Of a stretch of DNA of 64,000 nucleotides, positions 3,067 to 49,630 are shown piece after piece. Every line of letters starts with the position of its first letter. Position 1 is the first letter of the stretch. The stretch lies in the NCBI GenBank assembly GCA_030390025.1, contig CM059431.1, positions 138,076,001 through 138,140,000 of the forward strand, in the 5' to 3' direction. The translations under genes and the position numbers were made by a program. The notes below the pieces were generated by a model. The model made no database searches. It was not told the origin of the DNA and was given only the letters and a program-made list of their open reading frames with translations. The stretch comes from Squalus acanthias. Taxonomy: Eukaryota.

Positions 3067-6000
3067 AGAAACATAGAAACATAGAAAATAGGTGCAGGAG
3101 TAGACCATTCGGTTCTTCGAGCCTGCACCGCCATTCAATGCGTTCATGGCTGAACATGCTACCTCAGTACCCCATTCCTGCTTTCTCGCCATACTCCTTG
3201 CTCCCCCTAGTTGTGAGTATTATATCTAACTCCCTTTTGAATATATTTAGCGAACTGGCCTCAACAACCTTCTGTGGTAGAGAATTCCACAGATTCACCA
3301 CTCTCTGGGTGAAGAAGTTCCTCCTCATCTCAGTCTTAAATGGCTTCCCCTTTATCCTTAGACTGTGACCCCTGGTTTTAGTTTTCCCTAACATTGGAAA
3401 CATTCTGCCCGCATCTAATTTGTCTAAACCAGTCAGGATTTTAAACGTCTCTATAAGATCCCCCCTCATTCTTCTGAACTCCAGAGGATACAAGTTCAGT
3501 TGATCCAGTCTTTCTTGATATGTCAGTCTGGCCATCCCAGGAATCAATCTAGTGAACCTTCGTTGCACTCCCTCAATAGCAAGAATGTCCTTCCTCAAGT
3601 TAGGAGACCAAAACTGCACTCATTACTCCAGGTGTGGCCTCACCAAGGCCCTGTACAACTGTAGCATCACCTCCCTACTCCTGTACTCAAATCCCCTTGC
3701 TATGAATGAAATCATGCCAATTGCTTTCTTGACTGCCTGCTGCACTTGCCTTCCCACCTTCAGTGACTGATGCACCATGACGCCCAGGTCTCGTTGCACC
3801 TCCCCTTTCCCTAATCTGCCACCATTCAGGTAATAGTCTGCCTCCCTATTTTTACCACCAAAGTGGATAACCTCACATTTATCCACATTGTACTTCATCT
3901 GCCATACATTTTCCCATTCACCCAACCTGTCCAAGTCACTCTGTAGCCTCCTAGCATCCTCCTCATTGTTCACACTGCCTCCCAATTTAGTGTCATCCGC
4001 AAATTTGGAGATATCACAATTAATCCCTTCGTCCAAGTCATTAATATATAATGTAAACAGCTGGGGCCCCAGCACCGAACCCTGCGGTACCCCGCTGGTC
4101 ACTGCCTGCCATTCTGAAAAGTACCCATTTACTCCTACTCTTTGTTTCCTGTGTGCCAACCAGTTCTCAATCCACGTCAACACTTTACCCCCAATCCCAT
4201 GTGCTTTAACTTTGCACACCAATCTCTTGTGTGGGACCTTGTCGAAGGCCTTCTGAAAGTCCAAATACACCACATCTACTGGTTCCCCCCCGTCCACCCT
4301 ATTGGAAACATCCTCAAAAAATTCCAGAAGATTTGTCAAGCATGATTTCCCTATCACAAATCCATGCTGACTTGGACCTATCATGTCGCCACTTTCCAAA
4401 TGGTCTGTTATGACATCTTTAATAATTGATTCCATCATTTTACCCACCACCGATGTCAGGCTGACCGGTCTATAATTCCCTGCTTTCTCCATCCCTCCTT
4501 TTTTAAAAAGAGGGGTTACATTAGCCACCCTCCACTCCTTCGGAACTGATCCAGAGTCTAAGGAATGTTGGAAAATGAATGGCAATGCATCCATTATTTC
4601 CAAGGCCACCTCCTTAAGTACTCTGGGATGCAGACCATCAGGTCCTGGGGATTTATCAGCCTTCAGTCCCATCAATTTCCCCAACACCTTTTCCCGACTG
4701 ATAAGGATTTCCCTCAGCTCCTCCCTCTTACCAGAGCCTTTGATCTCTTTTATTTCCGTAAGGTTGTTTGTGCCCTCCACAGTAAACACCGAACCAAATA
4801 CTTGTTCAATTGATCTGCCAGTTCTTTGTTCCCCATTATGACTTCCCCTGTTTCTGACTGCAGGGGACCAACGTTTGTTTTTACTAACCTCTCTCTTTTT
4901 ACATATTTATAGAAGCTTTTGCAGTCCGTTTTAATGTTCTCCGCAAGCTTCCTTTCATATTTTATTGTCCCTGCACTAATCAAACCCTTCGTCCTCCTCT
5001 GCTGAGTTTTAAAGTTCTCCCAGTCCCCGGGTTTGCTGCTACTTCTGGCCAATTTGTATGCCACTTCCTTGCTTTTAATACTATCCCTGATTTCCCTTGT
5101 TAGCCATAGTTGAGCCACCTTCCCTTTTTTATTTTTACACCAGACAGTGATGTACAATTGCTGTAGTTCATCCATGCGATCTCTAAATGTCTGCCATTGC
5201 CCTTCCACTGATAACCCCTTAAATATCGCTTGCCAATCTAACCTCGCCAATTCACGCCTCATACCCTCAAAGTTGCCATTATTTAAGTTCTGGACATTGG
5301 TCTCTGAATTAACTGTTTCCTTCTCCATCCTAATGTAGAACTCCACCATACTATGGTCACTCTTCCCCAAGGGGCCTCACACCACAAGATTGCTGATTAG
5401 TCATTCATAAGAACATAAGAACATAAGAAGTAGGAGCAGGAGTAGGCCATACGACCCTTCGGGCCTGCTCCGCCATTCAATAGGATCATGGCTGATCCGA
5501 ACCTAGACTCACGTCCACTTCCCTGCCCGCTCCCCATAACCCTTCATTCCCTTATCAGCTAGGAAACTGTCTATCTTCGTTTTAAATTTATTTAATGTTG
5601 CAGCTTCCACAGCTTTCCCAGGTAGCAAATTCCATAGATTTACTACCCTCTGAGTGAAGAAGTTTCTCCTCATCTCAGTTTTGAAACAGCAGCCCCTTAT
5701 TCTAAGATTATGCCCCCTAGTTCTAGTCTCACCCATCAGTGGAAACATCCTCCCTGCATCCACCCGATCAAGCCCCCTCACAATCTTATATGTTTCGATA
5801 TGATCGCCTCTCATTCTTCTGTATTCCAATGAGTATAGGCCCAACCTACTCAACCTTTCCTCATAAGTCAACCCCCTCATCTCTGGAATCAACCGAGTGA
5901 ACCTTCTCTGAACTGCCTCTAGAACAAGTATATCTTTTCTTAAATATGGAAACCAAAACTGTACGCAGTATTCCAGGTGTGGCCTCACCAGTACCCTGTA

Positions 6001-8582
6001 TAGCTGAAGCAAGACTTCCCTGCTTTTATACTCCATCCCCCTTGCAATAAAAGCCAAGATTCCATTGGCCTTCCTGATCACCTGCTGTACCTGCATACTA
6101 ACCTTCTGTGTTGCATGCACCAGGACCCCCCAGATCCCTTTGTACTGTAGCACTTTGCAGTTTCTTTCCATTTAGAAAATAACTTGCTCTTTTGATTTTT
6201 TTCTGCCAAAGTGCATAACCTCACACTTTCCAACATTATATTCCATCTGCCAAATTTCTGCGCACTCACTTAGCCTGCCTATGTCCTTTTGCAGGTTTTT
6301 TATGCCGAGTTTTTTGGATGAGCTCAAGTTTTACGGAGGCCAGAACAAATGGGAGGCCGGGCCAGGAGCGCGTTGGAATAGTCCTGTCCAGCGTTACGAG
6401 TTTCTGTGGCTTCCGAATGCAGCTGTGGTTGCAAGGCTGAAAATATTTCGCATTGAAATGACACATTCCTCATTACACAACACCCAGTCCAGGATGGCCT
6501 CCCCTCTAGTTGGTTCCTCAACATATTGGTTTAGGAAACCATCCCTTAAACACTCTAGGAAATCCTCCTCCACCATATTGCTTCTAGTTTGAGTAGCACA
6601 ATCTATATGCATATTAAAGTCACCCATGATAACTGCTGCGCCTTGTTTGCATGTACCTCTGATTTCCTGTTTCATACCCTCCCCCACCTCACTACTACTG
6701 TTTGGAGGTCTGTACACAACCCCCACTAACGTTTTCTGCCCTTTGGTGTTCTGCAGCTCAACCCATATTGATTCCACATCCTCCATGCTAATGTCCTTCC
6801 TAGCTATTGCATTAATCTCCTTTTTAACCAGCAATGCTACCCCACCCCCTTTTCCTTTTATTCTATCCTTCCTGAATGTTGAATACCCCTGGATATTCAG
6901 TTCACAGCCTTGATTGTTCTGGAGCCACGTCTCTGTAATCCCAATCACATCATATCCGTTAACATCAATTTGCACAGTCAATTCATCCACCTTATTACGG
7001 ATACTCGTTGCATTAAGACACAGAGCCTTTAGGCTTGTTTTATTAACAGCCTTTGTCCTTTTAGACTTATGATTTACTATGGCCCTTTGTGTTTCTTGCC
7101 TTTGTTTACTCGGATTTCCCTTATTGTTTCTCACCCTTCTAACATTTGTTTCTGACTGCATATTACTTCCCCCTGTTTCGCTACATAGGTTCCCATTCCC
7201 CTACCATATTAGTTTAAATCCTCCCGAACTGCCTTAGCAAATATTACCCCGAGGACATCGGTTCCAGTCCTGCCCAAGTGCAGACCGTCCCTTTTGTACA
7301 GGTCCCACTTCCCCCAGAACTGGTTCCAATGCCTCAGGTATTTGAATCCCTCCCTCCTGCACCACTGCTCAAGCCACGTATTTAATCTCGCTATCCTGTT
7401 CATGCTACTCTGATTAGCACGTGGCACTGGTAGCAACCCAGAGATTACTACCTTTGAGGTCCTACTTTTCAATTTAGCTCCTTGCTCCCTAAATTCTGCT
7501 TGTAGGACCTCTTCCCGGTTTTTACCTATATCGTTGGTACCTACATGCACCACGACAGCTGGCTCTTCACCCTCCCTTTCCAGAATGTTCTGCAGCCGCT
7601 CCGAGACATCCTTGACCCTTGCACCAGGGAGGCAACATACCATCCTGGAATCTCGGTTGCGGCCACAGAAACTCCTGTCTATTCCCCTTACAATTGAGTC
7701 CCCTATCACTGTAGCTCTACCACTTTTATCCCGCCCTGCTGTGCAGCAGAGCCAGCCATGGTGCCATGAACCTGGCTGCTGGTGCCTTCCTCTGGTAGGT
7801 CATTTCCCCCAACAGTATCCAAAACGGTATATCTGTTTTGGAGGGAGACGACTGCAGCGGACTCCTGCACTACCTTCCTGATATTGCCCTGCCTCTTGGT
7901 CACCCATTTACTGTCTGACCTAGCCTTTACCCGCGGTGTGTTCAACTCACTAAATGAGTAATCCACAACGTTCTCGGCATCGTGGATGCTCCAGAGTGAG
8001 TCCATCCGCTGCTCCAGTGCCGCCATGCGGTCCGTCAGGAGCTGCAGCTGGACGCACTTCCTGCACACATAGTTGTCAGGGACACTGGAAGTGTCCCTGA
8101 TTTCCCACATAGCACAGGAGGAGCACGACACGGTTCCGAGATTTCCTGCCATGACTTAACCCTTATATTACTTTATTAAGTTAAGTCCCTGAAAACAAAA
8201 TATAAATCGAACCTACCTTTTAAATTCCCTCTACCCCTAAAGGTTAGAGGAGGTGGGAGGGTGGGAGACACTACTAGTGTAGTGTCTCCTGTTTAGCAAC
8301 AGCTCCCCCTATATACGGTTACCAATGAATTGGCCCCGCCCTCTGACTTTGACCCCTGCTGATTGATTAGAAAACTGGTTTCCACTGCCTGCTGTGCCAA
8401 TTTACTGCTACTGCAGTGTAACCTTGTTTTACTCTTCTTAAACCAACAGAATCCCAAATAGTTAACTTTTCCCCTTCACTTAAACTGCTTAAGTACTCTT
8501 ATCAAGAATGATTAAAAGAGAACTAACAATTAAAGAACTACTCCCATTTACCCAAACTCACAGCACTCTCTGCTGACTTGCA
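3067..8582 (-). mobile_element. Near full-length degenerate CR1 LINE (element C) inserted in B, interrupted by element D
   Basis: Frameshifted ORF1 (8152-7209; CxxC/CxxC and GDSI SGNH motif), ORF2 pieces 7161-3164, (TTTCTATG)n tail at 3067-3088, TSD atcat at 3062-3066 / 8583-8587; same family as 13152-17770. Confidence 0.92.
5407..6463 (-). mobile_element. 5'-truncated CR1 LINE (element D) carrying ~160 bp of non-LINE 5' sequence, inserted in C
   Basis: RT C-terminus (RPHLEYCVQFW, RNFFTQRVV), (TTCTTATG)n tail, TSD cattc at 5402-5406 / 6464-6468. Confidence 0.88.
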
Positions 8583-13249: not shown

Positions 13250-16186
13250 TCAGTACCCCATTCCTGCTTTCTCGCCATACCCCTTGATCCCCTTAGTTGT
13301 GAGTGTTATATCTAACTCCCTTTTGAATATATTTAGCGAACTGGCCTCAACAACCTTCTGTGGAAGAGAATTCCATAGATTCACCACTCTCTGGGTGAAG
13401 AACTTCCTCCTCAGCTCAGTCCTAAATGGCTTCCCCTTAATCCTTAGACTGTGACCCCTGGTTCTAGTTTTCCCTACCATTGGGAACATTCTGCCCGCAT
13501 CTAATTTGTCTAAACCAGTCAGGATTTTAAACGTCTCTATAAGATCCCCCCTCATTCTTCTGAACTCCAGAGGATACAAGTTCAGTTGACCCAATCTTTC
13601 TTGATATGTCAGTCCGGCCATCCCAGGAATCAATCTAGTGAACCTTCGCTGCACTCCCTCAATAGCAAGAATGTCCTTCCTTAAGTTAGGAGACCAAAAC
13701 TGCGCACAATACTCCAGGTGTGGCCTCACCAAGGCCCTGTACAACTGTAGCATCACCTCCCTACTCCTGTACTCAAATCCCCATGCTATGAAGGCCATCA
13801 TTCCGTTTGCTTTCTTGACTGCCTGCTGCACTTGCATTCCCACCTTCAGTGACTGATGTACCATGACGCCCAGGTCCCGTTGCACGTCCCCTTTCCCTAA
13901 TCTGCCACCATTCAGGTAATAGTCCGCCTCTCCATTTTTACCACCAAAGTGGATAACCTCACATTTATCCACATTGTACTTCATCTGCCATACATTTGCC
14001 CATTCACCCAACCTGTCCAAGTCACTCTGTAGCCTCCTAGCATCCTCCTCATTGTTCACACTGCCTCCCAATTTAGTGTCATCCGCAAATTTGGAGATAT
14101 TACATTTAATCCCTTCGTCCAAATCATTAATATATAATGTAAACAGCTGGGGTCCCAGCACCGAACCCTGCGGTACCCCGCTGGTCACTGCCTGCCATTC
14201 TGAAAAGTACCCATTTACTCCTACTCTTTGTTTCCTGTGTGCCAACCAGTTCTCAATCCACGTCAACACATTACCCCCAATCCCATGTGCTTTAACTTTG
14301 CTCACCAATCGCTTGTGTGGGACCTTGTCGAAGGCCTTCTGAAAGTCCAAATACACCACATCTACTGGTTCCCCCCTGTCCACCCTATTGGAAACATCCT
14401 CAAAAAATTCCAGAAGATTTGTCAAGCATGATTTCCCTTTCACAAATCCATGCTGACTTGGACCTATCATGTCGCCACTTTCCAAATGGTCTGTTATGAC
14501 ATCTTTAATAATTGCTTCCATCATTTTACCCACGACCGATGTCAGGCTGACCGGTCTATAATTCCCTGCTTTCTCCCTCCCTCCTTTTTTAAAAAGAGGG
14601 GTTACATTGGCCACCCTCCACTCCATCGGAACTGATCCAGAGTCTAAGGAATGTTGGAAAATGATCGTCAATGCATCCACTATTTCCAAGGCCACCTCCT
14701 TAAGTACTCTGGGATGCAGACCATCAGGCCCCGGGGATTTTTCAGCCTTCAGTCCCATCAATTTCCCCAATACCTTTTCCCGACTAATAAGGATTTCCCT
14801 CAGCTCCTCCCTCTTACCAGATCCTCTGACCCCTTTTATTTCCGGCAGGTTGTGTGTGTCCTCCGCAGTAAACACCGAACCAAAGTACTTGTTCAATTGA
14901 TCTGCCATTTCCTTGTTCCCCATTACGACTTCCCCTGTTTCCGACTGCAGGGGACCTACGTTTGTTTTTACTAACCTCTTTCTTTTTACATATTTATAGA
15001 AGCTTTTGCAGTCCATTTTAATGTTCTCTGCAAGCTTCCTTTCATATTTTATTTTCCCTGCCCTAATCAAACCCTTCGTCCTCCTCTGCTGAGTTTTGAA
15101 GTTCTCCCAGTCCCCGGGTTTGCTGCTACTTCTGGCCAATTTGTATGCAACTTCCTTGGTTTTAATACTATCCCTGATTTCCCTTGTTAGCCATGGTTGA
15201 GCCACCTTCCCTTTTTTATTTTTACGCCAGACCGGGATGTACAATTGTTGTAGTTCATCCATGCGATCTCTAAATGTCTGCCATTGCCCTTCCACTGATA
15301 GCCCCTTAAATATCGCTTGCCAATTTAACCTCGCCAATTCACGCCTCATACCCTCAAAGTTGCCCTTATTTAAGTTCTGGACCATGGTCTCTGACTTAAC
15401 TGTTTCCTTCTCCATCCTAATGTAGAACTCCACCATACTATGGTCACTCTTCCCCAGGGGGCCTCGTACCACAAGATTGCTGATTAGTCCCTCCTCATTA
15501 CAAAACACCCAGTCCAGGATGGCCTCCCCTCGAGTTGGTTCCTCAACATATTGGTTTAGGAAACCATCCCTTAAACACTCCAGGAAATCCTCCTCCACCG
15601 TATTGCTTCCAGTTTGAGTAGCCCAATCTATATGCATATTAAAGTCACCCATGATAACTGCCGTGCCTTTTTTGCACGCACCTCTGATTTCCTGTTTCAT
15701 ACCCTCCCCCACCTCACTACTGCTGTTTGGAGGTCTGTACACAACTCCCACTAACGTTTTCTGCCCTTTGGTGTTCTGCAGCTCAACCCATATTGATTCC
15801 ACATACTCCAAGCTGATGTCCTTCCTAGCTATTGCATTAATCTCCTCTTTAACCAGCAATGCTACCCCACCCCCTTTTCCTTTTATTCTATCCTTTCTGA
15901 ATGTTGAATACCCCTGGATGTTCAGTTCCCAGCCTTGATTGTTCTGGATCCACGTCTCTGTAATCCCAATCACATCGTATCCGTTAACATCTATTTGCAC
16001 AGTGAATTCATCCACCTTATTACGGATACTCCTTGCATTAAGACACAGAGCCTTTAGGCTTGTTTTATTAACATCCTTTGTCCTTTTAGACTTATGATTT
16101 AGTATGGCCCTTTGTGTTTCTTGCCTTTGTTTACTCGGCCTTCCCCTATTGTTTCTCACCCTTCTAACATTTGTTTCTGACTGCAT
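13250..16186 (-). CDS. CR1 ORF2: apurinic-like endonuclease plus reverse transcriptase (978 aa)
   Basis: Endonuclease motifs LNARS, ITETW, VYRPP, GDFN, SDH; RT motifs [30 protein letters not shown]; no interruption. Confidence 0.95.
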   Translation of the reverse strand: MQSETNVRRVRNNRGRPSKQRQETQRAILNHKSKRTKDVNKTSLKALCLNARSIRNKVDEFTVQIDVNGYDVIGITETWIQNNQGWELNIQGYSTFRKDRIKGKGGGVALLVKEEINAIARKDISLEYVESIWVELQNTKGQKTLVGVVYRPPNSSSEVGEGMKQEIRGACKKGTAVIMGDFNMHIDWATQTGSNTVEEDFLECLRDGFLNQYVEEPTRGEAILDWVFCNEEGLISNLVVRGPLGKSDHSMVEFYIRMEKETVKSETMVQNLNKGNFEGMRRELARLNWQAIFKGLSVEGQWQTFRDRMDELQQLYIPVWRKNKKGKVAQPWLTREIRDSIKTKEVAYKLARSSSKPGDWENFKTQQRRTKGLIRAGKIKYERKLAENIKMDCKSFYKYVKRKRLVKTNVGPLQSETGEVVMGNKEMADQLNKYFGSVFTAEDTHNLPEIKGVRGSGKREELREILISREKVLGKLMGLKAEKSPGPDGLHPRVLKEVALEIVDALTIIFQHSLDSGSVPMEWRVANVTPLFKKGGREKAGNYRPVSLTSVVGKMMEAIIKDVITDHLESGDMIGPSQHGFVKGKSCLTNLLEFFEDVSNRVDRGEPVDVVYLDFQKAFDKVPHKRLVSKVKAHGIGGNVLTWIENWLAHRKQRVGVNGYFSEWQAVTSGVPQGSVLGPQLFTLYINDLDEGIKCNISKFADDTKLGGSVNNEEDARRLQSDLDRLGEWANVWQMKYNVDKCEVIHFGGKNGEADYYLNGGRLGKGDVQRDLGVMVHQSLKVGMQVQQAVKKANGMMAFIAWGFEYRSREVMLQLYRALVRPHLEYCAQFWSPNLRKDILAIEGVQRRFTRLIPGMAGLTYQERLGQLNLYPLEFRRMRGDLIETFKILTGLDKLDAGRMFPMVGKTRTRGHSLRIKGKPFRTELRRKFFTQRVVNLWNSLPQKVVEASSLNIFKRELDITLTTKGIKGYGEKAGMGY

Positions 16187-16233
16187 ATTACTTCCCCCTG
16201 TTTCGCTACATAGGTTCCCATTCCCCTGCCATA

Positions 16234-17178
16234 TTAGTTTAAATCCTCCCGAACTGCTTTAGCAAATATTACCCCGAGGACATCGGTTCCAGTCCTGCCC
16301 AAGTGCAGACCGTCCCTTTTGTACAGGTCCCACTTCCCCCAGAACTGGTTCCAATGCCTCAGGAATTTGAATCCCTCTCTCCTGCACCACTGCTCAAGCC
16401 ACGTATTCAATCTCACTATCCTGTTCTCTCTATTCTGATTAGCACGTGGCCCTGGTAGCAATCCAGAGATTACTACCTTAGAGGTCCTACTTTTTAATTT
16501 AGCTCCTAGCTCCCTAAATTCTGCTTGTAGGACCTCTTCCCGCTTTTTTCCTATATCGTTGGTACCTACATGCACCACGACAGCTGGCTGTTCACCCTCC
16601 CTCTTCAGAATGTTCTGCAGCCGCTCCGAGACATCCTTGACCCTTGCACCAGGGAGGCAACATACCATCCTGGAATCTCGGTTGCGGCCACAGAAACTCC
16701 TGTCTATTCCCCTTACAATTGAGTCCCCTATCACTATAGCCCTACCACTCTTTTTCCCGCCCTGCTGTGCAGCAGAGCCAGCCATGGTGCCATGAACCTG
16801 GCTGCTAGTGCCTTCCCCTGGTAGGCCATCTCCCCCAACAGTATCCAAAGCGGCATACCTGTTTTGGAGGGAGATGACCACAGGGGACTCCTGCACTACC
16901 TTCCTGATATTGCCCTGCTTCTTGGTCACCCATTCACTGTCTGTCCTAGCCTTTACCTGCGGTGTGGACAACTCACTAAATGAGCGATTCACCGAGTTCT
17001 CGGCATCGTGCATGTTCCAGAGTGAGTCCACCCGCAGCTCCAGCACCGCCATGCGGGCTGTCAGGAGCTGCAGCTGGACACACTTCCCGCACACGTAGTT
17101 GTCAGGGACACTGGAAGTGTCCCTGGTTTCCCACATGGCACAGGAGGAGCATGAAACGGGTCCGAGACTTCCTGTCAT
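16234..17178 (-). CDS. CR1 ORF1: N-terminal Cys zinc-finger/coiled-coil plus SGNH esterase (314 aa)
   Basis: CSSC...CGKC, leucine heptads, GDSIVRG, HVGTND, DGLHL. Confidence 0.92.
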   Translation of the reverse strand: MTGSLGPVSCSSCAMWETRDTSSVPDNYVCGKCVQLQLLTARMAVLELRVDSLWNMHDAENSVNRSFSELSTPQVKARTDSEWVTKKQGNIRKVVQESPVVISLQNRYAALDTVGGDGLPGEGTSSQVHGTMAGSAAQQGGKKSGRAIVIGDSIVRGIDRSFCGRNRDSRMVCCLPGARVKDVSERLQNILKREGEQPAVVVHVGTNDIGKKREEVLQAEFRELGAKLKSRTSKVVISGLLPGPRANQNRENRIVRLNTWLEQWCRREGFKFLRHWNQFWGKWDLYKRDGLHLGRTGTDVLGVIFAKAVREDLN

Positions 17179-17462
17179 GACTTAACCCTTATGTTACTTT
17201 ATTACTAAAATTTAAACTTATTTATCTTAGGTCCAGGAGTTAAGTCCCTGAAAACAAAATATAAAATCGAACCTACCTTTTAAATTCCCTCTACCCCTAA
17301 AGGTTAGAGGAGGTGGGAGGGTGGGAGTCACTACTAGTGTAGTGTCTCGGGTTTAGCAACCGCTCCACCTATATACGGGTACCAATGAATTGGCCCCGCC
17401 CCCTGCCTTTGAAAAAGCCCGCGAAGCTCTTTCCCCGCTGGGGAAAAGGCCACGTAGGTGAG

Positions 17463-17859: not shown

Positions 17860-18255
17860 CATTGTCACCTCTGGTGTAACTGTAGACACCCTATTACCAG
17901 AGGAACATGGTCACGTCTAGTATATGTGGAGGAGTAACACTTGTACCATAGGAGCAGGGTCACCACTGGTGTACGATTATGGAAAGACCAGTACCGGACG
18001 ACTACGTTCACCACTAGTTTAAGTGGAGGGCCACCACTAGTGCTGGAGGAGGACAATCACCTCTCCTGTAAATGTAGATTGCCACTAGCACCGTAGAAGC
18101 TCTTTCTCCACTAGTGTAAGTGCAGTGCTCCCACTAGTACAGGAGTAGTACGGTGAACTCCAGTTTAAGTGTAGGGTTTCACTACTGCAGGAACAGCACG
18201 CTCACCTCTACTCTAAGTGTAGGTTTACGACAACTACAGGAGTAACACCGTTACT
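17860..18255. repeat. Degenerate ~49-bp tandem array (~8 units) upstream of GPCR copy 1
   Basis: Reverse complement of the array at 46479-47345 (recurring ...ctagtgtaagtgtagg...cactactgcagga motifs). Confidence 0.75.
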
Positions 18256-18723
18256 TTTAATGCTGCAGAATTGGGGTCATCAACAATATTGCAAGACTTG
18301 TTTCCCGCCTGTTCTGGAGGAGTTGGAGCACTGGGACTGAGTCAAGCGCAGGGTCAGGGTTTGAAGTGCAAGGGGACCTGCCATCACTACTCCAGTGGGA
18401 AGAGAGTCAGCACATTTACCGGAGAGGTGACTGTCTGCCTCCAGCACCAGTAATGCGAGATTACAATTTCTACTTGCAAATAACGTTTTTTAAACATTTC
18501 CAATAACAATTTCAAACATTTCTCTTAATCTGACATATGACATAAAAGAAAACTTGCCTGATTCTATTTGTTAAATGACCGTAACTAATGCTAATTATGA
18601 CTTAACCTCATTGACTCGCTGGAGGATTGATTTGTGGATAAATATAGGTTCACTTCCATTGCCTCAGCCGTGCGCCAGTCAGAATCTTTTAGCTCCGACA
18701 CTATTCATCCATTCTCACAGAAA

Positions 18724-20158
18724 ATGGGGCGATCAACTATTCTTCTGATCAAAGAGATTTACTACCCGATTCTCGCAGCAGTCGGTATCCCCGGTGAGCC
18801 ATTGTAACCTGTTTGTTGTTAATCGGTGTTAATTATCTCCTTGTTCTTACTGCCTGTTGGTTAACGTAACTCGTTTTCTGGATGTCAGCATTACACAGTC
18901 AGTAGTGACTGGACCTACTAGTGAACCGCCTGTCCGCACTTCCGTGTTCTCCTTAATATGATCAAGTTAATGATGTTATAAAGCTCTTAGAAGCTCCAAC
19001 ACAAGGATTTTAGCGGACTTTCAAACCGTCTTGTCACCCCGTGCAGAGTGAGCGCTGCAGCAGCTCATTAACATGTCTGGGTGGGTTCCCCCGGTAATGG
19101 CTCCAAAACTAACTCTCTTCTCACACTGCTCCGTGTGGATAATCACACTGAATAGAGTGAAATGCTCTCCACAGGTATCTCCATATATATTTCAATCAGA
19201 CATTGCAACATTATTTATCTCCTCTCTCTTTATTACAGCAAACTTGGTGACAATGGTGATTATCTCCCGAGGAAACTGCGGCCTTTCCAAGTGTATATCT
19301 GTCTACATGGTGGCCATGGCAACAGCAGATCTACTGGTCATGATCTTCAATGTAATGGTGTATTATATCTTCAGTTATCACTTTCCACTTTCATTCCTGT
19401 TCCACACTCCCGTCTGTAAGTTCATTCTATACATCACCACTGTCAACCTCGAATTGTCTGTCTGGTTCACCGTCTCCTTCACATTTGACCGATTTGTAGT
19501 TATCTGCAGCCAGAAGTTTAAAACAAAGTATTGCACCAAGAAAACCGCGGCCGCGATTATAACTACGTTCTCTGTTCTGATCTTGTGAAATAACATCCCC
19601 TTGATGTTTGCATATAAACGTCAGCAAATAATGAACAAGGTGCAGTGGGGCTGCCGGCCAAGTGTGGCCTTCTTTACCTCACCTCCAGGTGTAGCGTACT
19701 CCTGGTTTCACACAGTCTGGCTAGTTTGGCTTCCTTTTACTTTAATCGCTTTGTGTAATTCTTTGACAGTCAGACGTATTTTAGTGGCCAGCAGAGCCCG
19801 CAGAGGACTCCGTGCTCAGAGGAGTGAGAATCAGTGTGATCCAGAGATGGAGAGCAGAAGGAAATCCATCATTTTACTCTTCGCTATATCGGGCAGTTTT
19901 ATACTGTTGTGGTTGACAGCTGTAGTGAGTTTTGCAACTACCGGACTGACAAACATCAATTATTACCGAGGCGACCGCACAAACCCAGCCTATATCGCCA
20001 CTGAAACCGGAGCCATGCTGAAGCTTTTGAGCTCCTGTATAAACCCGTGTATTTTTGCAGCTACCCAGAGGAAATTCAGAGAAGAGCTGAAGAAATTGCT
20101 GAAATCTCCCTGGACACTGATTCTAAGACTGGTTAACAATGAAAGAAATACGAACTAG
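18724..20158 (+). pseudogene. GPR139/GPR142-like class A GPCR, two exons (18724-18793, 19239-20158), one in-frame TGA at 19586-19588
   Basis: Exon 1 encodes MGRSTILLIKEIYYPILAAVGIP, followed by a GT-AG intron of 445 bp; AMATADLL (TM2), SVWFTVSFTFDRF (TM3), INPCIF (TM7); ~329 codons. Confidence 0.88.
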
Positions 20159-27986: not shown

Positions 27987-28099
27987 TATATTTCATTGGA
28001 ACTCTATTCCTCTGATATTCGAGGGACCATTGTTGAACAAAGGGGAGATCAGGAACTGGCAGAGGGAGGGAACCCGTGGTACTGGAAACTGGCAGTGAA

Positions 28100-31000: not shown

Positions 31001-32558
31001 TTGATTTTTTAATGCTCTCACACCTATATGAATTATTATTTACTTTGACCATGTTTGATTTAAACCGTTGAGTTCTTTGCCTTCTACTTTTGTTTTTCTC
31101 CTTCCTGTCTTTTGCTTTTATCCTTGTTTCCCTTTATTCTGTCTCCCTGCTCAGGTTCCCAACCCCTTGCCACTTTAGTTTAAAACCTCCCCAACAGCAC
31201 AAGCAAACACTCCCACTAGGACATCGTTCCCGGCCCTGCCCAGGTGCAGACCGTCCCGTTTGTACTGGTCCCACTTCCCCCAGAACCGGTTTCAATGTCC
31301 AAGGAATTTGAATCCCTCCCCCTTGCACCATTCCTCCCCCACGGATTCATTTGAAATATCCTCCTATTTCTACTCTGACTAGCACATGACACTGGCAGCA
31401 ATCCTGAGATTACTACCTTAGAGGTCCTATTTTTAAATTTACCTCCTAACTCCCTATATTCTGCTTTTAGGACCTCATCCCGTTTTTTACCTATATCGTT
31501 GGTGCCTATGTGCACCACGACAACTGACTTTTCGCCCTCCCCCTCCAAAATGTTTTGTAGCCGCTCCGAGACGTCCTTGACCCTTGGACCAGCGAGGCAA
31601 CACACCATCCTGGAGTCTTGTTTGCGGCCGCAGAAACGCCTATCTATTCCCCTTACAATTGAGTCCCCTATCACTATAGCTCTTCCACACTTTTTCCTCC
31701 CAGCCTGTGCAGCAGAGCCACCAATGGTGCCAGGAAGTTGGCTGCTGCTGCCTTCCCCTGACAAGTCATCACCCCCAACAGTATCCAAAGTGCTATATCT
31801 GTTTGAGAGGGGGATGGCCACAGGGGAGCCTTGCACTAGCTGCCTGCACCTCTTACTCTGCCTGGTGGTCACCCATTCACTTCCTGCCTGTACACCCTTT
31901 AACTGCGGTGTGACCAACTCGCTAAACGTGCTATCCACGACGTTCTCAGCGTCGCGAATGCTCCAATATGCATCCATCCGCAGCTCCAGAGCCGCAATGT
32001 GTTCTATCAGTAGCTGCAGCTGGATACACTTCCCACACACATGGTCGTCAGGGACACAGGAAGTGTCCCTGCTTTCCCACATATAGCAGGAGGAGCATAT
32101 CAAGGGGCGGAGCTCTCCTGCCATGACTTACCCTTTAATTAATTAATTAAAATTAAATTAAATGAATCCCACCAATTTCACTTCAATTAAATGATATACT
32201 CAAGGTCCCTTTCTTAACAGTAGTCCCCGCTACACAACAGAGACCCTAGAAACCGCAAAATTTTAAGTTCAGAAAAATTTAGAAGGAAAATACTCACCAA
32301 CCAATCACTTACCTGCTTCTTGGCGACGTAACAGTTAGATTGTTTTTTGCTTCCCTCTCCCGGACCTGGATTAGGGAAAATCCCCCTGGCTCACCGCCGC
32401 TTGCCGCTCCTAGGGCTGCCTCCGCTGCTCTGGGCCTACCACGCCTCGGGGCTCACCTTTATACCGCCGCTCGCCGCTCCTCGGGCTGCCTCCGCTGCTC
32501 TGGGCCTACCACGCCTCGGGGCTCAACATATACCGCCGCTCGCCGCTCCTCGGGCTGC
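28100..32558 (-). mobile_element. Full-length degenerate CR1 LINE (family of elements A/B)
   Basis: ORF1 from 32124 (SGNH, frameshifted), ORF2 pieces 30914-28324, 3'UTR and decayed tail near 28100, repeated 5'UTR. Confidence 0.92.
32393..32558 (-). repeat. ~70-bp GC-rich tandem monomers (2.4 copies) at the LINE 5' end
   Basis: accgccgc recurs at 32393, 32463 and 32532. Confidence 0.9.
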
Positions 32559-32723
32559 GGGAACCCGTGGGACTGCAATCTGGCAGAGTGTGGGAACCCG
32601 TGGGACTATGTTCTGGCAGAGTGTGGGATCTCGTGCGACTGTGTTCTGGCAGAGTGTGGGAACCCGTGGGACTGGACTCTGGCCGAGGGAGGGAACCCGT
32701 GGGACTGTGCTCTGGCAGAGTGT
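32559..32723 (+). repeat. 33-bp minisatellite (~5 units)
   Basis: gggaacccgtgggactgtgctctggcagagtgt; related units also at ~28053-28097. Confidence 0.92.
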
Positions 32724-33490
32724 TGTAAGATTAGGATCACTGGCCACACACAGATTACCCAAAGGGTTTTAGGTGTTGCAAGGCTTTTATTAAACAGCTG
32801 CAGTTTAAAAGCATAATCAGATATTACATATGGTTTAAGCTGAGTATAATAGACATACAACCCATTACAGTCGAGAGCGATCTACAACTCTCGAAGCGGA
32901 ATGCCACAACCGGATGGACGGTGAGGCAGTACGGTGGTCTCGGATAGGGTGGACTCCTGCAGTCTGCTGCAGCGATCACTTCCGTTGGGTCATCCCTCAA
33001 GCTGTCGGAGGTGTTAGGCCGTCAGCCACCTCAGAGGCTAAACTTGACCAAGGTGCCACCTCGGGGAAGCCTTCGCCCCTAACTGCCTGATTTCCTCTCT
33101 CGGTCATCTATATTTATAGATATTTCGGTGGACTGGTAATCACCTGATGTCAATCATTTAATCCCCCATCCTATTGTCCAAATGTGAAACGGGAAGGCAT
33201 CACTTGCCGTCCCTTTCTGCATGGCTACGAGGCCTCCATCTTATATTTCTGAGGAATGTTTTGTTATGTTTCTTAAAGGACATTTTATGACTTTTCGGCT
33301 CCATTTTTGCTTATTATCGCACCACCCTGTGTTGTTTTGCATTTTACGATTCCCTTATCACTTCTATTTGTGTTTTGATGATTGTTATTCGATCTTGCTG
33401 GCATTTCTGCTTTCTGTTCCCGGTTGCATGTTGTCAGTCCCTGTTCTAAGAATTAAAACCCAACTTTGATTCTAACAGCTATTTCTTACA
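32724..33490 (-). mobile_element. Solo LTR (767 bp) inserted in the minisatellite
   Basis: TGTAAGA...TCTTACA termini, 4-bp TSD gtgt (32720-32723 / 33491-33494); on the minus strand TATAAATA at ~33111-33118 and AATAAA at 32786-32791. Confidence 0.85.
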
Positions 33491-33981
33491 GTGTGGGAAC
33501 CCCTGGGATGGAATCTGGCAGAGTGAGGGAACCCGTGGGATGGAATCTGGCAGAATGTGGGAATCCGTGGGATGGAATCTGGCAGAGTGTGGGAACCCGT
33601 GGGATGGAATCTGGCAGAGTGAGGGAACCCGTGGGATGGAATCTGGCAGAATGTGGGAATCCGTGGGATGGGATCTGGCAGAATGTGGGAACCCGTGGGA
33701 TGGAATCTGGCAGAATGTGGGAACCCGTGGAATGGAATCTGGCAGAATGTGGGAATCCGTGGAATGGAATCTGGCAGAGTGTGGGAACCCGTGGGATGGG
33801 ATCTGGCAGAGTGCGGGAACACGTGGGATGGAATCTGGCAGAGTGTTGGGACCCGTGGGATGGAATCTGACAGAGTGTGGGAATCCGTGGAATGGAATCT
33901 GGCAGTGTGTGGGAACCAGTGGGATAGAATCTGGCAGAGTCTGGGAACTCATGGGATGGAATCTGGGAGAGTGTGGGATCC
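33491..33981 (+). repeat. 32-bp minisatellite (~15 units)
   Basis: gggaacccgtgggatggaatctggcagagtgt. Confidence 0.95.
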
Positions 33982-34344
33982 GACTGAACGAAAGGGAACC
34001 AGGAGAGCGGGGCCAAGATGAGAAGGAGAGCGTGAAGAGTCGAACAAATCAATAGACGGAGAGAGCCCCACTTTGAATTAATAAAATATCAATCATATTT
34101 TGTTTTCAACTTCTAAATACCGATCAGTGAAATTAAATGAAAAGGGATTCGATCAAATCGGTAAAGGAAGAGATTGGATCATTTCAAAACGGGAATTTGT
34201 TAACATATTTAAAATGTGATTCTTAAATTTATGATTATACGACAAAATTTAAGGATAATCTGCTGAACTGAGCAAGGAAGAGATCAAGGCAAGACTGGAG
34301 GTACCCGGATGTGTGGTCTCGGGCGGGCCCTCGCCCACAGCGGG

Positions 34345-35339: not shown

Positions 35340-36083
35340 TTAAAAGCAGTGATATTGCAAAGCTCTAGAACAGAGTAGAGTTTTGAGTAAAAATAAATAG
35401 AGTGGGTCCGGAAGGGAGAGATAGAGTAACAAAGGTAATAAGGCATCAGTGACTAAGGTGACAGCAGGGACAAACAGAAATATGTCAAAGCTAAAACGAT
35501 TATATCTGAAAGTGCAAACATTCGAAACAAAATAGATGAATTAATAGCACAGATAGTAATTAAAGGTTTAATCTACAAGGCATAACGGAGACGTGGTTGC
35601 AAAGTGGCCATGGTTGGGAAATAAATATTCCAGGATATATAACTTTTAGAAGGGATAGGCATAATGGAAAAGCTGGAGGGGTAGCCCTGATAATAAAGGA
35701 TGGGATAGAGACAGTAGAGAGAAAGGATCTGAGATCTGAAAACCAAGAAGTAAAATTAGTTTGGGTGCAGCTAAGTAACAGCAAAGGTCTGAATAAAATG
35801 GTGGGAGTTGTTTATAGGCCCTCAAACATTAGTTGTAATGTAAGACAGAGAATAAATCAGGAAATTAGAGGCGGAGGTAGCAAAGGTAATATAATAATGA
35901 TCTACATATAGACTGGGCAAACCGAATTTGCAGTAATAGCGTGGAGGAAGAATTCATGGAATGTATGCAAGATAGTTTTCAAGACCAGTCTGTTGAGCAA
36001 CCAACCAGGGAACAGGAACGTAGATCTAGTATTGTGCAATGAGAAATTTTGAATTAACAACCTTGTAGTAATATTAGTGACCA
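35340..36083 (+). mobile_element. Degenerate CR1 LINE, endonuclease part
   Basis: ITETWLQ, GGVALIIK, VYRPS; interrupted by the Gypsy element within the SDH motif. Confidence 0.85.
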
Positions 36084-36333
36084 TGTTGAGGTTGCCGCGA
36101 AACACGAATTATGACTGAATCTACGTGTGGAAAACAAAGGCTTTTTAATACAACTGCATGGTTCAAAATGGCTGAAATCCACTGCACCCAGAATTCTCTG
36201 GAAAAACCCTGAGGCCCCGCCCACTCCTTTTCTCCTGCCTTAAAGGCAATGTGCCTCAAAGGCAAGGTGCCCGATTTATTTGTCCACGGACGGAGAAGTG
36301 GAATATGCCCGTTTAGGTTTGCGATCCACCACA
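36084..36333 (-). repeat. Gypsy 3' LTR
   Basis: TG...CA termini; ~90% identical to 40338-40586 by hand count. Confidence 0.92.
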
Positions 36334-37592
36334 CAGCTCCCCACAGAATCCGCTTAGGAGGTGTGGACGAGACGGTGCGGCGGTCTGATGGGCCAGCAGG
36401 AGCGGCTCTTGTACGACGCCAGTGGACGTGGAACGGCCGGGCATGGAGCAGCCGGGTGAACCGGCTTGAGGGCAGGTCGGGCGCATGGTGCTGGACGAGC
36501 CACGGGGACTTGCTTACCGGGCTCCGAGTGTGCTGGCTTGAGTCGGTCAACCGACATTTTTTCGGTCCTGTCGCCCACTTGCAGGGTTAAATATTTGTCC
36601 CCAGCCTGTAGCACCCTGTAGGGCCCGTTGTACTGGGGTTGAAGGGGTCCGTGGTGGGCGTCGTGCCGGATGAAAACGAACCGTGCTTGGTGCAGGCTTA
36701 GTGGGACGTGTGAGGTGGATTCGCCGTGTCGGGCAATGGGCACCGTGTCGAACTGCAGCGCCGGTGAGGCGAAGTCGTGGCGTTGCTGGTCGGCTGACCA
36801 GGGTGTCGTGGCGGTGGGCAGGAACTCGCCGGGTACGCGCAGCGGCTGACCGTACACGAGCTCTGCTGCCGATGCGTGGAGGTCTTCTTTAACCGCAGTG
36901 CGCAGGCCGAGGAGGACCCATGGAAGTCGGTCGGTCCAGGCGCCGGCCTGGAGGCTGGCTTGAAGAGATGCCTTCAAGGATCGGTGGAACCGCTCACACA
37001 GTCCGTTGGCTTGTGGATGGTACGCTGTGGTGCGGTGAATGGTCACCCCGAGATTGCGTGCGATGGCGGTCCAGAGTTCAGAGGTAAATTGCGGACCTGT
37101 GTCCGAAATCATGTCGGAGGGGACGCCAAACCGTGCAATCCAAGTGCTGACGAAGGCTCTGGCGATGTCGGCGGCGGTGGTAGAGGTCAGTGGAATTGCC
37201 TCGGGCCAGTGCGTGGTGCGTTCAACGATCGTCAGCAAGTGCGTGTGGCCTTGCGACGGCGGCAGGGGCCCAACGATGTCCACGTGGATGTGGTCGAATC
37301 TACGCGAGGGTACGGTAAACTCCTCTAGGGGTGCTTTCGTGTGTTGCTGTACCTTGGCCCGTTTGCAGGCTAGGCAGGAGTTGGCTCAAGTACGCACATC
37401 CTTATGAAGGCCACGCCAGACAAAGCGGTTGGCTACCAATTTGATGGATGTGTGGGCGCCGGGGTGTGAGAGGTTGTGGAGAATGTCGGATACCCGGCGG
37501 CGCCAGGACGCTGGGACGACGGGCCGAGGTTGACATAGGGATATGTCACGCTTGACCGTGACTGCGGTCGGGCCACAGGCGACGTCGGCCAG

Positions 37593-37722
37593 GTTCTGAT
37601 GAAAGGTCATCGACCTGAAACGTCAACTCTCTTTCTCTCTCCACGGATGCTGCCTGGCCTGCTGAGTTTTTCCAGCGTTTTCTGTTGTTATTTCGGATTT
37701 CCAGCATCTGCAGTATTTTGCT
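37593..37722 (+). mobile_element. Short Penelope-type non-autonomous element with minimal hammerhead core
   Basis: gtt-CTGATGA-a-aggtc-atc-gacct-GAAAC-GTC-aac; AT-richer insert within the GC-rich Gypsy pol; second copy at 49217-49351. Confidence 0.75.
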
Positions 37723-40322
37723 ATCGTATAGCCTGGTAGGTTGGTAGTTGCGGAGAGCAGATCAGGGTCGGTGATCTGGTCTGCTGCGAGTTGAGCGTAG
37801 TCGACTGCCAGGTGTGAGGCGTGGATAGCGGGGCGGGTGAGTCAGTCGGCTACCACATTGTCTCGGCCGGAGACGTGTTCGATGTCCGTGGTGAACTCGG
37901 ACACTGCCACGAGCTGGCGCTGCTGCCTGGCGGTCCAGGGGTCGGTTGTCTTTGCCATTGCGAATGTCAGGGGCTTGTGGTCGACAAACGAAGTGAAGGG
38001 GTGGCCGTCAAGCAAAAACCGAAAATGGCGGACCGCCAGGAACAGCGCGAGGAGCTCGTGGTCGAAGGTGCTGTACTTGACCTCCGGGGGGTGTAGTTGA
38101 CGGCTGAAGAAGGCAAGTGGTTGCCAGGCGCCGTCGACCCACTGCTCATACCCGGCGCTGACTGCATGGTCGGAGGCGTCCGTGGTGAGCGCTACCCTGG
38201 CATTGGGCCGTGGGTGCGCGAGCGAGGTGGCGTTGGCGAGCGCGGTCTTGGTGGAGTCGAAGGCGGCGGACGTGTCTGCTGTCCATTCGCCCGCCATCTT
38301 GCCGCTCCTGCCCTGGACGGCTTCTTACAGGGGCCTCATGAGGGATGCCGCTTTTGGGATGAAGCGGTTTTAGAAATTCACCAACCCGAGGAACTCCTGG
38401 AGGCCTTTGATGGTGGTGGGGCGGGGAAATTGTTGGATGGTCTGCACCTTGGTGGGCAGGGGAATGGCCCCAGCATGGGTGATGTGGTGGCCGAGGAAGT
38501 CGATCTTGTCCAGGCTGAACTGGCATTTGGCTGGGCTGAGGATGAGCCCGTGGTCACTGAGGCGCCCGAACAGGATGCGAAGGTGTTCGAGGTGTTCCTG
38601 CTTGGAGGAACTGGCTACCAGGATGTCGTCCAGGTACACGTACAGGAACATCAGGTCCCGAACGAACGAGTCCATGAGCCGTTGGAATGTCTGGGCCGCG
38701 TTTTTGAGGCCGAAGGGCATCCGCAGGAACTCGAAAAGGTCGAAGGGGGTGATTACGGCCGTATTGGGGACGTCCGCGGGGTGGACAGGGACTTGGTGGT
38801 AGCCGCGCGCATGGCCGAACTCGGAAAAGACTGAGCGGCCGGCCAGTCTAGCCGAGAAGTCCTGAATGTGTGGCATGGGGTACCGACAGGGGTTGTGGCG
38901 TCGTTGAGGCGGAGGTAATCCCCGCAGGGGCGCCAACCCCCGCCTGGTTTGGGGACGATGTGGAGTGGGGAGGCCCAGGGACTGTTGGAGCGGCGGATGA
39001 TGCCGAGCTGTTCCATGGTGGTAAACTCGGTCTGCGCGATCTCCAGTTTGGCTGGGTCCAGCCTGCGGGCATGGGCGTACACTGGGGGGCCTGTGGTAGG
39101 GATGAATTGTTCTACCCCGTGTTTGGCGTCCTCCGCGGAGAAGGTCGAATTGGTAAGGGCCGGGAATTCAGCCAGGAGAGCCGAGTAGTCATACTGACCC
39201 GGGCGTGGCACTGTGACGCCATGTCGGCGGGTTGACGGGGGGGCCATGGTGCCCAGGATGGGGGGCATGGTGTTCATGTCCATGAGGCGGTGACGAGGGA
39301 TGTCTACCAGTAGGCCGTGGGTGCACAGGAAATCTGTGCCGATGAGAGTGGAAAGCACCTTGGCAGTGATGAACTCCCATCGGTAGCGGCGACCAGCGAG
39401 GTCGAGGGTGACTGTCCGAGTGCTGTACTTCCGGATTTCTGAGCCGTTAGCAGCAGCCAGCGCCGGTCCTCATTCGCCCTTTTGGATGTTGAGGGAGGAG
39501 GCCGGGATGATGCTGTGCTGAGCTCCTAAGTTGCACAGGAACCGGCGGCCGGTTTTGTCATCCGTGACGTAGAGCCGGGAGCCGGCGTGGCCCACGGCCA
39601 TCGCGGGGGCTGGTATGGGGGCGGACTTGAAACAACAGGGAGGTGTGCACCATTGTGTCCTGGAGCCGAACCGCGTGTAGTAGTAACAGCGGCCCAGGTT
39701 AGTGGGGCGTGAAGGCCCCGTGGGCCTGGTGGCTGGTCCTTGTGGCTGCGTGGTGGCCGGTGAGGGGCGCGCCCAGGCATTTGCTGCCAGGTCCGGAGTG
39801 ACGTCCCGGCTGGAGTGAGCGGACAGCAGCTTGTCGGCCTGATTGGCCAGCGCTTCCAGGTTCGTGAGGCCAGACGCCACAATCGCTGTGCGGATGCTGA
39901 GAGGGAGCTGGCGGATGAACAGCGTGCGGAAGAGGAATCCGGGTGGTCTCTCGTCAGTGAGGGAGAGCATGTGGGAGAGGAGGTCTGGCGTTGAGGCATC
40001 ACCGAGGCCTGGAAGGTCGAGGAGGTAGCTGTTTCACTGGTATGCCGAGGCCATAAATGTTTTAAGGAGCGTTGCCTTAAGATGTGCATTCTTGCCTTCC
40101 TCTGGTGGGTTCTTCAACGCTGTCCAAACCTTCAAAACTGTGGCGCTACCGAGTGATGTGACGAGATAGTCATACTGCATCCCATCTGTGGTGAAGTTTC
40201 GCAGCCGGAAGCGTAATTCAGCTTGGAGAAACCAGGCTTCGGGCTGGTTTTCCCAAAACTCCGGCAGTTTCACGGAAACTGCGTTTGTGTTCGCCATTGC
40301 AGTGCTCGGAATACGTTCAGAG

Positions 40323-40336
40323 CGTCGGGGTCACCA
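40323..40336 (-). other. Primer-binding site complementary to the 3' end of tRNA-Trp
   Basis: TGGTGACCCCGACG immediately inside the 5' LTR. Confidence 0.85.
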
Positions 40337-40337
40337 A

Positions 40338-40586
40338 TGTTGAGGCTGCCGCGAAACACGAATTAAGACTGAATCCATGTGTGGAAAACAAAGTCTTTTT
40401 AATACAACTGCATGGTCCAAAATGGCTGAAACCCACTGCTCCCAGAATTCTCTGGAAAAACCCTGAGAGCCCGCCCTCTCCTTTTCTCCTGCCTTAAAGG
40501 TAAGTTGCCTTAAAGGCAAGGTGCCCGATTTTTTGGTCCACGGACGGAAAGGTGGAAAATGCCCGTTTCGGTGGCGATCCGCCACA
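40338..40586 (-). repeat. Gypsy 5' LTR
   Basis: Direct repeat of 36084-36333, adjacent to the PBS. Confidence 0.92.
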
Positions 40587-47900: not shown

Positions 47901-49630
47901 TCGGCCCTTCGAGCCTGCTCCTCTATTCAATAAGATCATGGATGATCTTATACCTCAACTCCAGCTGGCCGCGCGATCCCCATATCCCTTGGTTCACTGA
48001 TTATCCAAACATCTATCGATTTCTGTGTTCAAAATAGTCAAGGACTGAGCATCGACAGCCCTCTAGGGTAGCGAATTACGAAGTTTCACAGCCCTTTGAG
48101 TGAAGAAATGTCTCTACATCTCAGTCCTAAATGGCCGACCCCTTATTCTGAGATTGTGACACTAGTTGTAGATTCCCCGGCCAGGAGAAACATCCTTCCT
48201 GCATCTACCCTGTCAAGCCCCTCAATAATTGTATACGTTTCAATGAGATCACCTTTCATTCTTCTAAACTCTTGGGATTATAGGCCTAGTCTACTCAGTC
48301 TCTCCTCATAGGCAATCCCCTCATCCCGGGAATCAGTCTAGCGAACCTTTGTTGCACTCCCTCTATGGCAAGTTTATCCTTCCTTAGTTAATGAGACCAA
48401 AACTGTACACGATGCTCCAGTTGTGGTCTCGCCAGGGCCCTACATAATTGCAGTAAGACTTCTACAATTATGCTCCAATCCTTTTGTAATGAAGGCTGAC
48501 AGACCATTTCCTTTACTAATTGCTTGCTGCACCTTCATGTTAACTTTCCGTGATTTGTGTGCAAGGACACCCAGTTCTCTCTGAATACCAACATTTCCCA
48601 ATCTCTCGCCATTTAAAAAATACTCTGCTTTTCTATTATTCCTACCAAAGTGAATAACTTCACATTTCTCCACAGTGGATTCCAGCTGCCATGCGCTTAC
48701 CCACTCACTTAACCTGTCTATATCCACTTGCAGCCTCTTTGCATCCTCGTCACAACTTGCCTTCCCACCTAGCTTTGTATCATCAGCAAACCTGGATACG
48801 TTACACTCGTCCCCTCATCGAAGCCATTGACATAGATTGTAAAAGCTGCGGCCCAAGCACTGATTCTTGCATTACCCCACTATTTACAGCCTGCAAAACT
48901 TAAAATAACCTGTTTATTCCTTCACTCTATTTTCTGTCCGATAACCAATCCTCAATCCATGCTAATATATTGCCCACAACCCCATGAGCCCTTATCTTGC
49001 ATAGCAACCTTTTATGTGGCAACCGATCGAATATATTTTGGAAAACCAAATATACTACCTCCACTGTTTCCCCCTTATCTACCCTGCTAGTTACAACCTC
49101 AAGAAATTCTATTAGATTTGTCAAGCATGATTTCCCTTTCATAACTCCGTGTTGACTCTGCCCAATCATATTTTGATTTTCTAAGTGCCCTGTTACCAAG
49201 TCCCTAATAATAGATTACAAAACCAATAAACTGCGGTTGCTGGAAATCTGAAATAAAAACAGAAAATGCTGGAAATACTCAACAGGTCAGGCAGCATCTA
49301 TGGAGAGAGAAACAAAGTTAACGTTTCAGGTCGATGACCCTTCGTCAGAACATATTCCAAATAAAGATTCCTTCATTAGCATTTTCACTACTACTGATAT
49401 CAGGCGAACTGGCCTGTACTGCTCAATATTCTCTCTTCCTATTTCTTGAATAGCAGGATTATTGTTGAAACTTTCCAATCGGTGGGGACCGTTATTGAAT
49501 CTAAGAAATTCTGGAAGAGCAAAACCAAGGCATCCACTATCTCTGTAGCAACTTCTTTTAAAACCCTAGATTGTAGGCTATCAGGTCCCGGGAATTGTCA
49601 GCTTTTAGTCCCATTAATTTCTCCAGTCTA
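47900..49630 (-). mobile_element. Degenerate 5'-truncated CR1 LINE interrupted at 49217-49351
   Basis: [18 protein letters not shown] and KCEVIHFG motifs plus 3'UTR. Confidence 0.85.
49217..49351 (-). mobile_element. Short Penelope-type element with minimal hammerhead core (copy 2)
   Basis: Minus strand reads gtt-CTGACGA-a-gggtc-atc-gacct-GAAAC-GTT-aac; body homologous to 37593-37722. Confidence 0.75.

Follow-up and report, generated by a model that had tools for sequence, protein, structure and literature searches.

A minimal hammerhead motif in a decayed Gypsy retrotransposon, carried on the probable 3' end of a Penelope-like element

What is the short, hammerhead-bearing repeat that interrupts the pol gene of a Gypsy retrotransposon at this locus, and can its ribozyme still act there? 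Within the window (the whole stretch of 64,000 nucleotides that was analysed), the repeat, presumably one of cartilaginous fishes, occurs twice. The insert in the Gypsy element, 131-135 bp long, is likely what remains of a Penelope-like element (PLE) truncated from its 5' side, namely the terminal repeat and tail of its 3' end, and it is predicted to be inert at this position. The features on which the argument depends are the following:

37592..37628, plus strand: minimal type I hammerhead motif (direct reading, pattern scan, full descriptor, published min-HHR consensus)
37594..37728, plus strand: inserted repeat, copy 1, 131-135 bp (empty-site joint, identity to copy 2)
37695..37728, plus strand: last ~30 nt of copy 1, likely the optional 'tail' of PLEs (missing from many family copies)
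49218..49376, minus strand: repeat copy 2, inserted (159 bp) into what is left of a LINE ORF2 (similarity, pattern scan)
36084..40586, minus strand: host Ty3/Gypsy LTR retrotransposon, full-length, with decayed pol (Pfam, homologs, LTRs, TSD)

The hammerhead of copy 1 can be read directly from the sequence. Its core, CTGATGA (37596-37602), is followed by an extra A at 37603 and by a 5-bp stem II with a 3-nt loop (37604-37608 paired with 37612-37616). GAAA (37617-37620) then leads into the loop-less pair C37621-G37622, with stem III shrunk to the palindromic ACGT (37620-37623) and loop III missing altogether. The GTC triplet occupies 37622-37624, with the predicted cut after 37624, and stem I pairs 37592-37595 with 37625-37628 through 4 bp (three Watson-Crick pairs and one G.U). 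The original prediction had named the core, the extra A, stem II, GAAAC, the triplet and stem I, as well as the reduction of stem III to a palindrome, and each of them lies where it was placed. The core pattern matches the window twice, against a mean of 0.01 matches per shuffle over 100 shuffles, and a full descriptor (core, paired 15.2-16.2, stem II of at least 4 bp, stem I of at least 3 bp) returned the same two sites and 0 matches across 300 dinucleotide shuffles. The hammerhead search proposed as a check on the prediction was successful in its descriptor form (two window sites) but not with Rfam, as a scan of 36000-39500 up to an E-value of 10 gave four weak, unrelated matches and no hammerhead.

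Both window copies keep positions C3, U4, G5, A6, N7, G8, A9, G12, A13, A14, A15.1, U16.1 and H17 intact, and all core-adjacent pairs (1.1-2.1, 10.1-11.1 and 15.1-16.1) form in both, the criteria for an intact core being those given in the accessible part of PMC3088659. In copy 2, stem I has 3 bp and stem II 5 bp. The two copies differ at 20 positions, three of which fall within the core/stem II region: N7, 10.1 (where the pair survives as G.U) and H17. Across these two full copies, the change at 10.1 is one-sided and no compensatory double change is seen. The triplet of copy 2 is GTT, and both GUC and GUU fit H17 (PMC3088659, same part). The hammerhead motif of copy 1 is complete and real.

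Minimal hammerheads (min-HHRs) of this sort have been found by the thousands per genome, mostly as single motifs that are probably truncated PLE copies (Cervera and De la Pena 2014, PMC4209133). Like them, the window motif combines a CUGANGA core, one extra base before stem II, a 5-bp stem II, ACGU and a short stem I, on copies that are mainly single, dispersed and numerous. The pair 10.1-11.1 sets the window copies apart, being A-U in copy 1 and G.U in copy 2 instead of the usual G-C. In a hand count of Fig. S3 of PMC4209133, 29 of the 56 rows have a loop-less C-G-U-H stem III (13 CGUC, 15 CGUU and 1 CGUA), and 11 of the 56 have either G.U (8) or A-U (3) at 10.1-11.1. It therefore appears that no feature of the copy 1 motif lies outside the published range of PLE min-HHRs, and the predicted assignment to a minimal type I hammerhead of the PLE kind, on a short mobile sequence, is upheld by this match to the consensus. 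The searched part of the PMC4209133 supplement holds no cartilaginous fish; the copy 1 repeat adds one family to the class described in 2014. No paper on this repeat family was found in literature searches, and it may already be catalogued in Repbase or Dfam. According to the available part of their preprint, Li et al. 2026 (bioRxiv 10.64898/2026.07.22.740005) sampled one chondrichthyan, and their supplement may list the family.

The repeat was inserted into its present context, as had been predicted. Pfam detects RVT_1, RT_RNaseH and rve (RT, RNase H and integrase) on the minus strand of the host element, which is bounded by LTRs at 36083-36333 and 40337-40586 (TG..CA, ~90% identical) with a 4-bp TSD. 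Copy 1 is antisense to the Gypsy pol and separates its RNase H region from its integrase region. An empty Gypsy site, with 37593 joined to 37732, was found in 4 out of 4 public runs, and it is because the uninterrupted site occurs in all four that we consider the repeat a true insertion into a pre-existing Gypsy element. The 5' border of copy 1 is 37594, G37593 and the preceding bases being present at the uninterrupted site; host sequence therefore supplies part of the 5' strand of its stem I. The 3' end is uncertain and lies at about 37724-37728. Of the element originally proposed at 37591..37722, the size (~130 bp) stands, but both borders have to be moved.

No exact TSD was found at the ends of the copy 1 insert, and some PLE insertions are described as lacking one in the accessible text of PMC3846280. 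The last bases of the target resemble the CCAG found upstream of the family, and microhomology may therefore have helped insertion, as the same part of PMC3846280 describes for a rotifer PLE. Besides the hammerhead insert, the Gypsy pol contains stops and a frameshift, and the Gypsy element is high-copy in the runs of organism A.

Copy 2 (49351-49216, minus strand) is 85% identical to copy 1 (37593-37728) over 136 nt, with its hammerhead core at 49348-49320 (minus strand). It carries 25 extra bases (49376-49352) 5' of the part common with copy 1, and these are unlike the usual upstream consensus of the family. They were rejected as a TSD: 12 of 14 columns match the downstream target, a score reached by 178 of 5000 shuffles in what was one of four comparisons, which is too weak. 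They may be filler, a decayed duplication or a spliced first exon. In both copies the cut site is ~100 nt from the 3' end. A two-copy profile run over the window gave no third copy (next best match at E 0.9), while pattern scans of metagenome and viral contigs and blastn against phages gave 0 matches and no further full copies. An 8-10-nt direct repeat, its units 29 nt apart, is present in both copies (37669-37676 and 37698-37705 in copy 1; 49276 and 49247 in copy 2).

The extent of the family emerges from four of 22 public runs (X1, X2, X6 and X9), compared as contigs with 37300-38000 at a match of at least 80%; X9 is from another organism, and the RNA origin of X6 is a guess. Matching contigs number 15,361, 24,862, 1,968 and 108, respectively. 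Summed depth over 37588-37731 is several-fold to more than 100-fold above the flanks in X1, X2 and X6, such depth not being a copy number. The family is very large. In the four runs, T accounts for 94%, 86%, 96% and 92% of the contig depth summed at 37624; the family triplet is therefore GUU and the GUC of copy 1 a minority state, so that the predicted GTC holds for copy 1 but not for the family. In X9, depth is raised over 37636-37683 only. The X9 relatives share mainly the middle 40-50 nt (37639-37686) and differ to either side of it; this suggests a cis-element conserved across families, perhaps an RT binding site.

Two 3' ends, ~28 nt apart, can be recognised in X1, X2 and X6. Among the matches listed, the main one produces loose ends behind 37722 in 191, 306 and 26 contigs, and the second, which falls inside the window copy, loose ends behind 37694 in 109, 153 and 14 contigs; a window-specific difference at 37695 may displace the latter by a few bases. 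The shorter end falls just ahead of the second unit of the direct repeat. At the other side, the 5' loose ends listed for the same three runs converge on the same last ~16 letters, composed of a branch-point-like TAAC, a pyrimidine run and a CAG that includes 37593, directly before the hammerhead. The agreement of this acceptor-like consensus in the three runs is low (0.40-0.52; 0.40-0.61 for the 5' loose-end consensus), and no spliced read was seen. From these letters, part of the family looks as if it continues 5' into a common intron-end-like sequence. The peak of 5' loose ends at 37593 was discarded as proof of a copy start, since it follows from the window copy's own start; copy 2 alone gives independent support for that border. 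Four single contigs contain joints to the opposite strand at the 5' end (37596 to 37631/37632, 37593 to 37648), and an inverted 5'-truncated neighbour is absent at both window copies. The tandem copies expected under the original prediction are likewise absent from the window, where both copies are solo, but one X2 contig has a head-to-tail joint from 37729 to 37593, with 20 letters between, and small tandems therefore exist.

On this sequence evidence, the family appears to have ends of the PLE type: two 3' ends, a 5' continuation shared by some copies and a few inverted junctions. PLEs possess an optional 30-40-bp tail, which arises from two internal RT starts in PAc, a Poseidon-type PLE of Anolis carolinensis (Frangieh et al. 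2024, PMC11167929). The tail of Pen2a_Av is given as 31 bp in the accessible text of PMC3846280, and an inverted truncated copy is typical of PLEs according to the available part of PMC8557442. As in PAc, ~100 nt separate the hammerhead from the 3' end downstream of it, the two alternative 3' ends are ~30 nt apart, insertions retain the uncut hammerhead and, in copy 1 (37599), an ATG stands 26 nt ahead of the cut. The PAc ATG, however, comes after C3/G8, at the start of stem II, whereas that of copy 1 is inside the core, and the RT of PAc starts in an AC-rich stem-loop, whereas the tail here is T-rich. A further likeness is with the Penelope of D. virilis, in which the intron of the terminal repeat reaches up to the 5' end of helix I (PMC4209133; also the accessible part of Schostak 2008, PMC2377424): the upstream consensus of our family seems to resemble a 3' splice site at this same place. 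The D. virilis hammerhead differs from copy 1 in possessing a small helix III and in the bulge of its helix II.

The GIY-YIG RT partner whose presence had been proposed as a check was not found in the window: two Pfam scans, of 33 and 120 ORF references (153 ORF scans together), revealed no GIY-YIG or PLE protein, and the RT matches of the window belong to LINE copies and the Gypsy element. The second of these scans comprised 132 listed ORFs minus 14, plus two Gypsy ORFs, the 14 being those of the arrays at 32283-34088 together with 19052-19585 and 19589-20155 (the latter two scanned earlier).

The repeat could instead be a self-contained, non-autonomous element of ~135 bp (a SINE-like PLE derivative or a retrozyme monomer) using PLE enzymes in trans, which comes close to the separate ribozyme-bearing family or retrozyme first envisaged. 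In both window copies the shared sequence sets in at one and the same point (37593/49351), many copies may have unrelated flanks there, judging by the low agreement of the 5' loose ends, and the X2 head-to-tail joint would be expected of such an element. There are also precedents, as retrozymes derived from PLE terminal repeats are reported, one chondrichthyan included, in the available part of Li et al. 2026, and non-autonomous PLE derivatives from Chlamydomonas in that of PMC8557442. With non-LTR retrozymes, the repeat has in common a short non-coding mobile sequence, a type I hammerhead and kinship with PLE terminal repeats. Retrozymes are, however, described as tandemly repeated sequences of 150-450 bp whose type I hammerheads are canonical (Cervera and De la Pena 2020, PMC7229834); the non-LTR ones are tandem, mostly canonical and form circular RNAs, whereas the window copies belong to no tandem array, have a minimal hammerhead and end off the cut site. 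Insertions carrying bases 5' of the cut are not cut-to-cut monomers. The 5' continuation common to part of the family also argues against a self-contained element, as does the absence of any tRNA gene from the window in an ARAGORN search, from which decayed tRNA heads can escape. A PLE end is preferred over a separate non-autonomous retrozyme family because both window copies are solo, and with ends like those of PLE terminal repeats the idea of a separate family found no support; we regard the self-contained element as unlikely.

A different doubt concerns the hammerhead itself, which could be a relic or look-alike that never cleaves, in a real repeat where it has some other role (splice acceptor, frame start or protein-binding site). 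Rfam gives no hammerhead match, and the best predicted fold of the copy 1 monomer is not the hammerhead (-9.5 kcal/mol versus -5.9 kcal/mol for the hammerhead fold), poor folding of the monomer being expected because the motif has no stem III. The duplex predicted through the palindromic core is weak (-3.1 kcal/mol for copy 1 and -6.2 kcal/mol for copy 2), and a lone copy 1 is predicted not to cut RNA. Published min-HHRs are feeble too: monomers are inactive and dimers cleave at a low level (Cervera and De la Pena 2014, PMC4209133), 8 of 9 Xenopus dimers failed to cleave according to the available part of Li et al. 2026, and in vitro insertion of PAc is independent of hammerhead cleavage, HHR-dead RNA inserting normally and uncut RNA being the main template (PMC11167929). 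Dimer cleavage is also attributed to Lunse et al. 2017 in the accessible part of PMC6765202. Against a relic, all core positions are intact in both window copies despite 15% overall divergence, hammerheads built alike are found in 40 metazoan species (PMC4209133), and the PAc hammerhead cleaves when protein is added, with changes at C3/G8 acting as expected of a hammerhead (PMC11167929). We consider it very unlikely that the hammerhead is such a relic or look-alike.

For the likely PLE end, published work on PLEs suggests how the insert could have arisen. The GIY-YIG endonuclease of the parent element would have nicked the target Gypsy DNA, and its RT would have started inside the RNA at one of two points, ~100 or ~70 nt beyond the hammerhead cut site in the 3' direction, the two starts yielding copies with or without the ~30-nt tail. 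DNA synthesis would then have ended on reaching the 5' edge of stem I. As the insert retains the whole hammerhead, bases 5' of the cut site included, its template was likely uncut RNA. In a tandem transcript of the parent, two hammerheads could pair via the palindromic ACGU to build stem III; alternatively, a PLE protein could aid hammerhead folding in the parent RNA. Hammerheads paired or assisted in this manner would cut weakly after GUH, while a solo copy with neither partner nor promoter would not.

The purpose of PLE hammerheads is the open question of the field, since they are dispensable for insertion in vitro (PMC11167929). The one handle on it offered by this locus is that the 5' border, the edge of stem I and a likely splice acceptor coincide: the two window copies enter the family sequence no more than one base from the 5' edge of stem I, at a 3'-splice-site-like spot. 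Splicing might conceivably set this border, giving a discrete RNA/cDNA end, a swapped outer 5' strand of stem I and a unit-length mini-element, but we consider this improbable. The value of the locus lies mainly in repeat annotation, the insert being probably a dead PLE end in a dead Gypsy element and not a regulatory ribozyme.

Some further candidates were tried and rejected. An open frame of 46 codons (37599-37739, plus strand) has its ATG inside the hammerhead core, 26 nt ahead of the cut. Copy 2 has no such ATG, and a stop interrupts its corresponding frame; as the start of a PLE protein the frame was dismissed, with no homolog among longer proteins and no Atlas match. A tRNA-derived SINE was likewise discarded, no tRNA-like head having been found on an insert that opens directly with the hammerhead, and so was an LTR retrozyme of the plant type, since the repeat contains just one motif, of type I, and has neither a TSD nor paired LTRs that belong to it.

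The window at large is animal DNA, packed with LINE copies (esterase ORF1, APE-RT ORF2). One of them (13250-17181, minus strand) encodes a GDSL-esterase ORF1 of 315 aa and an open APE-RT frame of 1002 aa, and has several related copies, one of which, at about 3060-8180, is 95-98% identical. Two decayed copies of a rhodopsin-family GPCR lie in inverted orientation (17918-20135, plus strand; 46783-44615, minus strand) and are 79% identical over 2.2 kb. Related minisatellite arrays of 33-bp/32-bp units (32559-32723 and 33490-33978) adjoin a LINE 5' end, and a single unit at 28056 resembles them.
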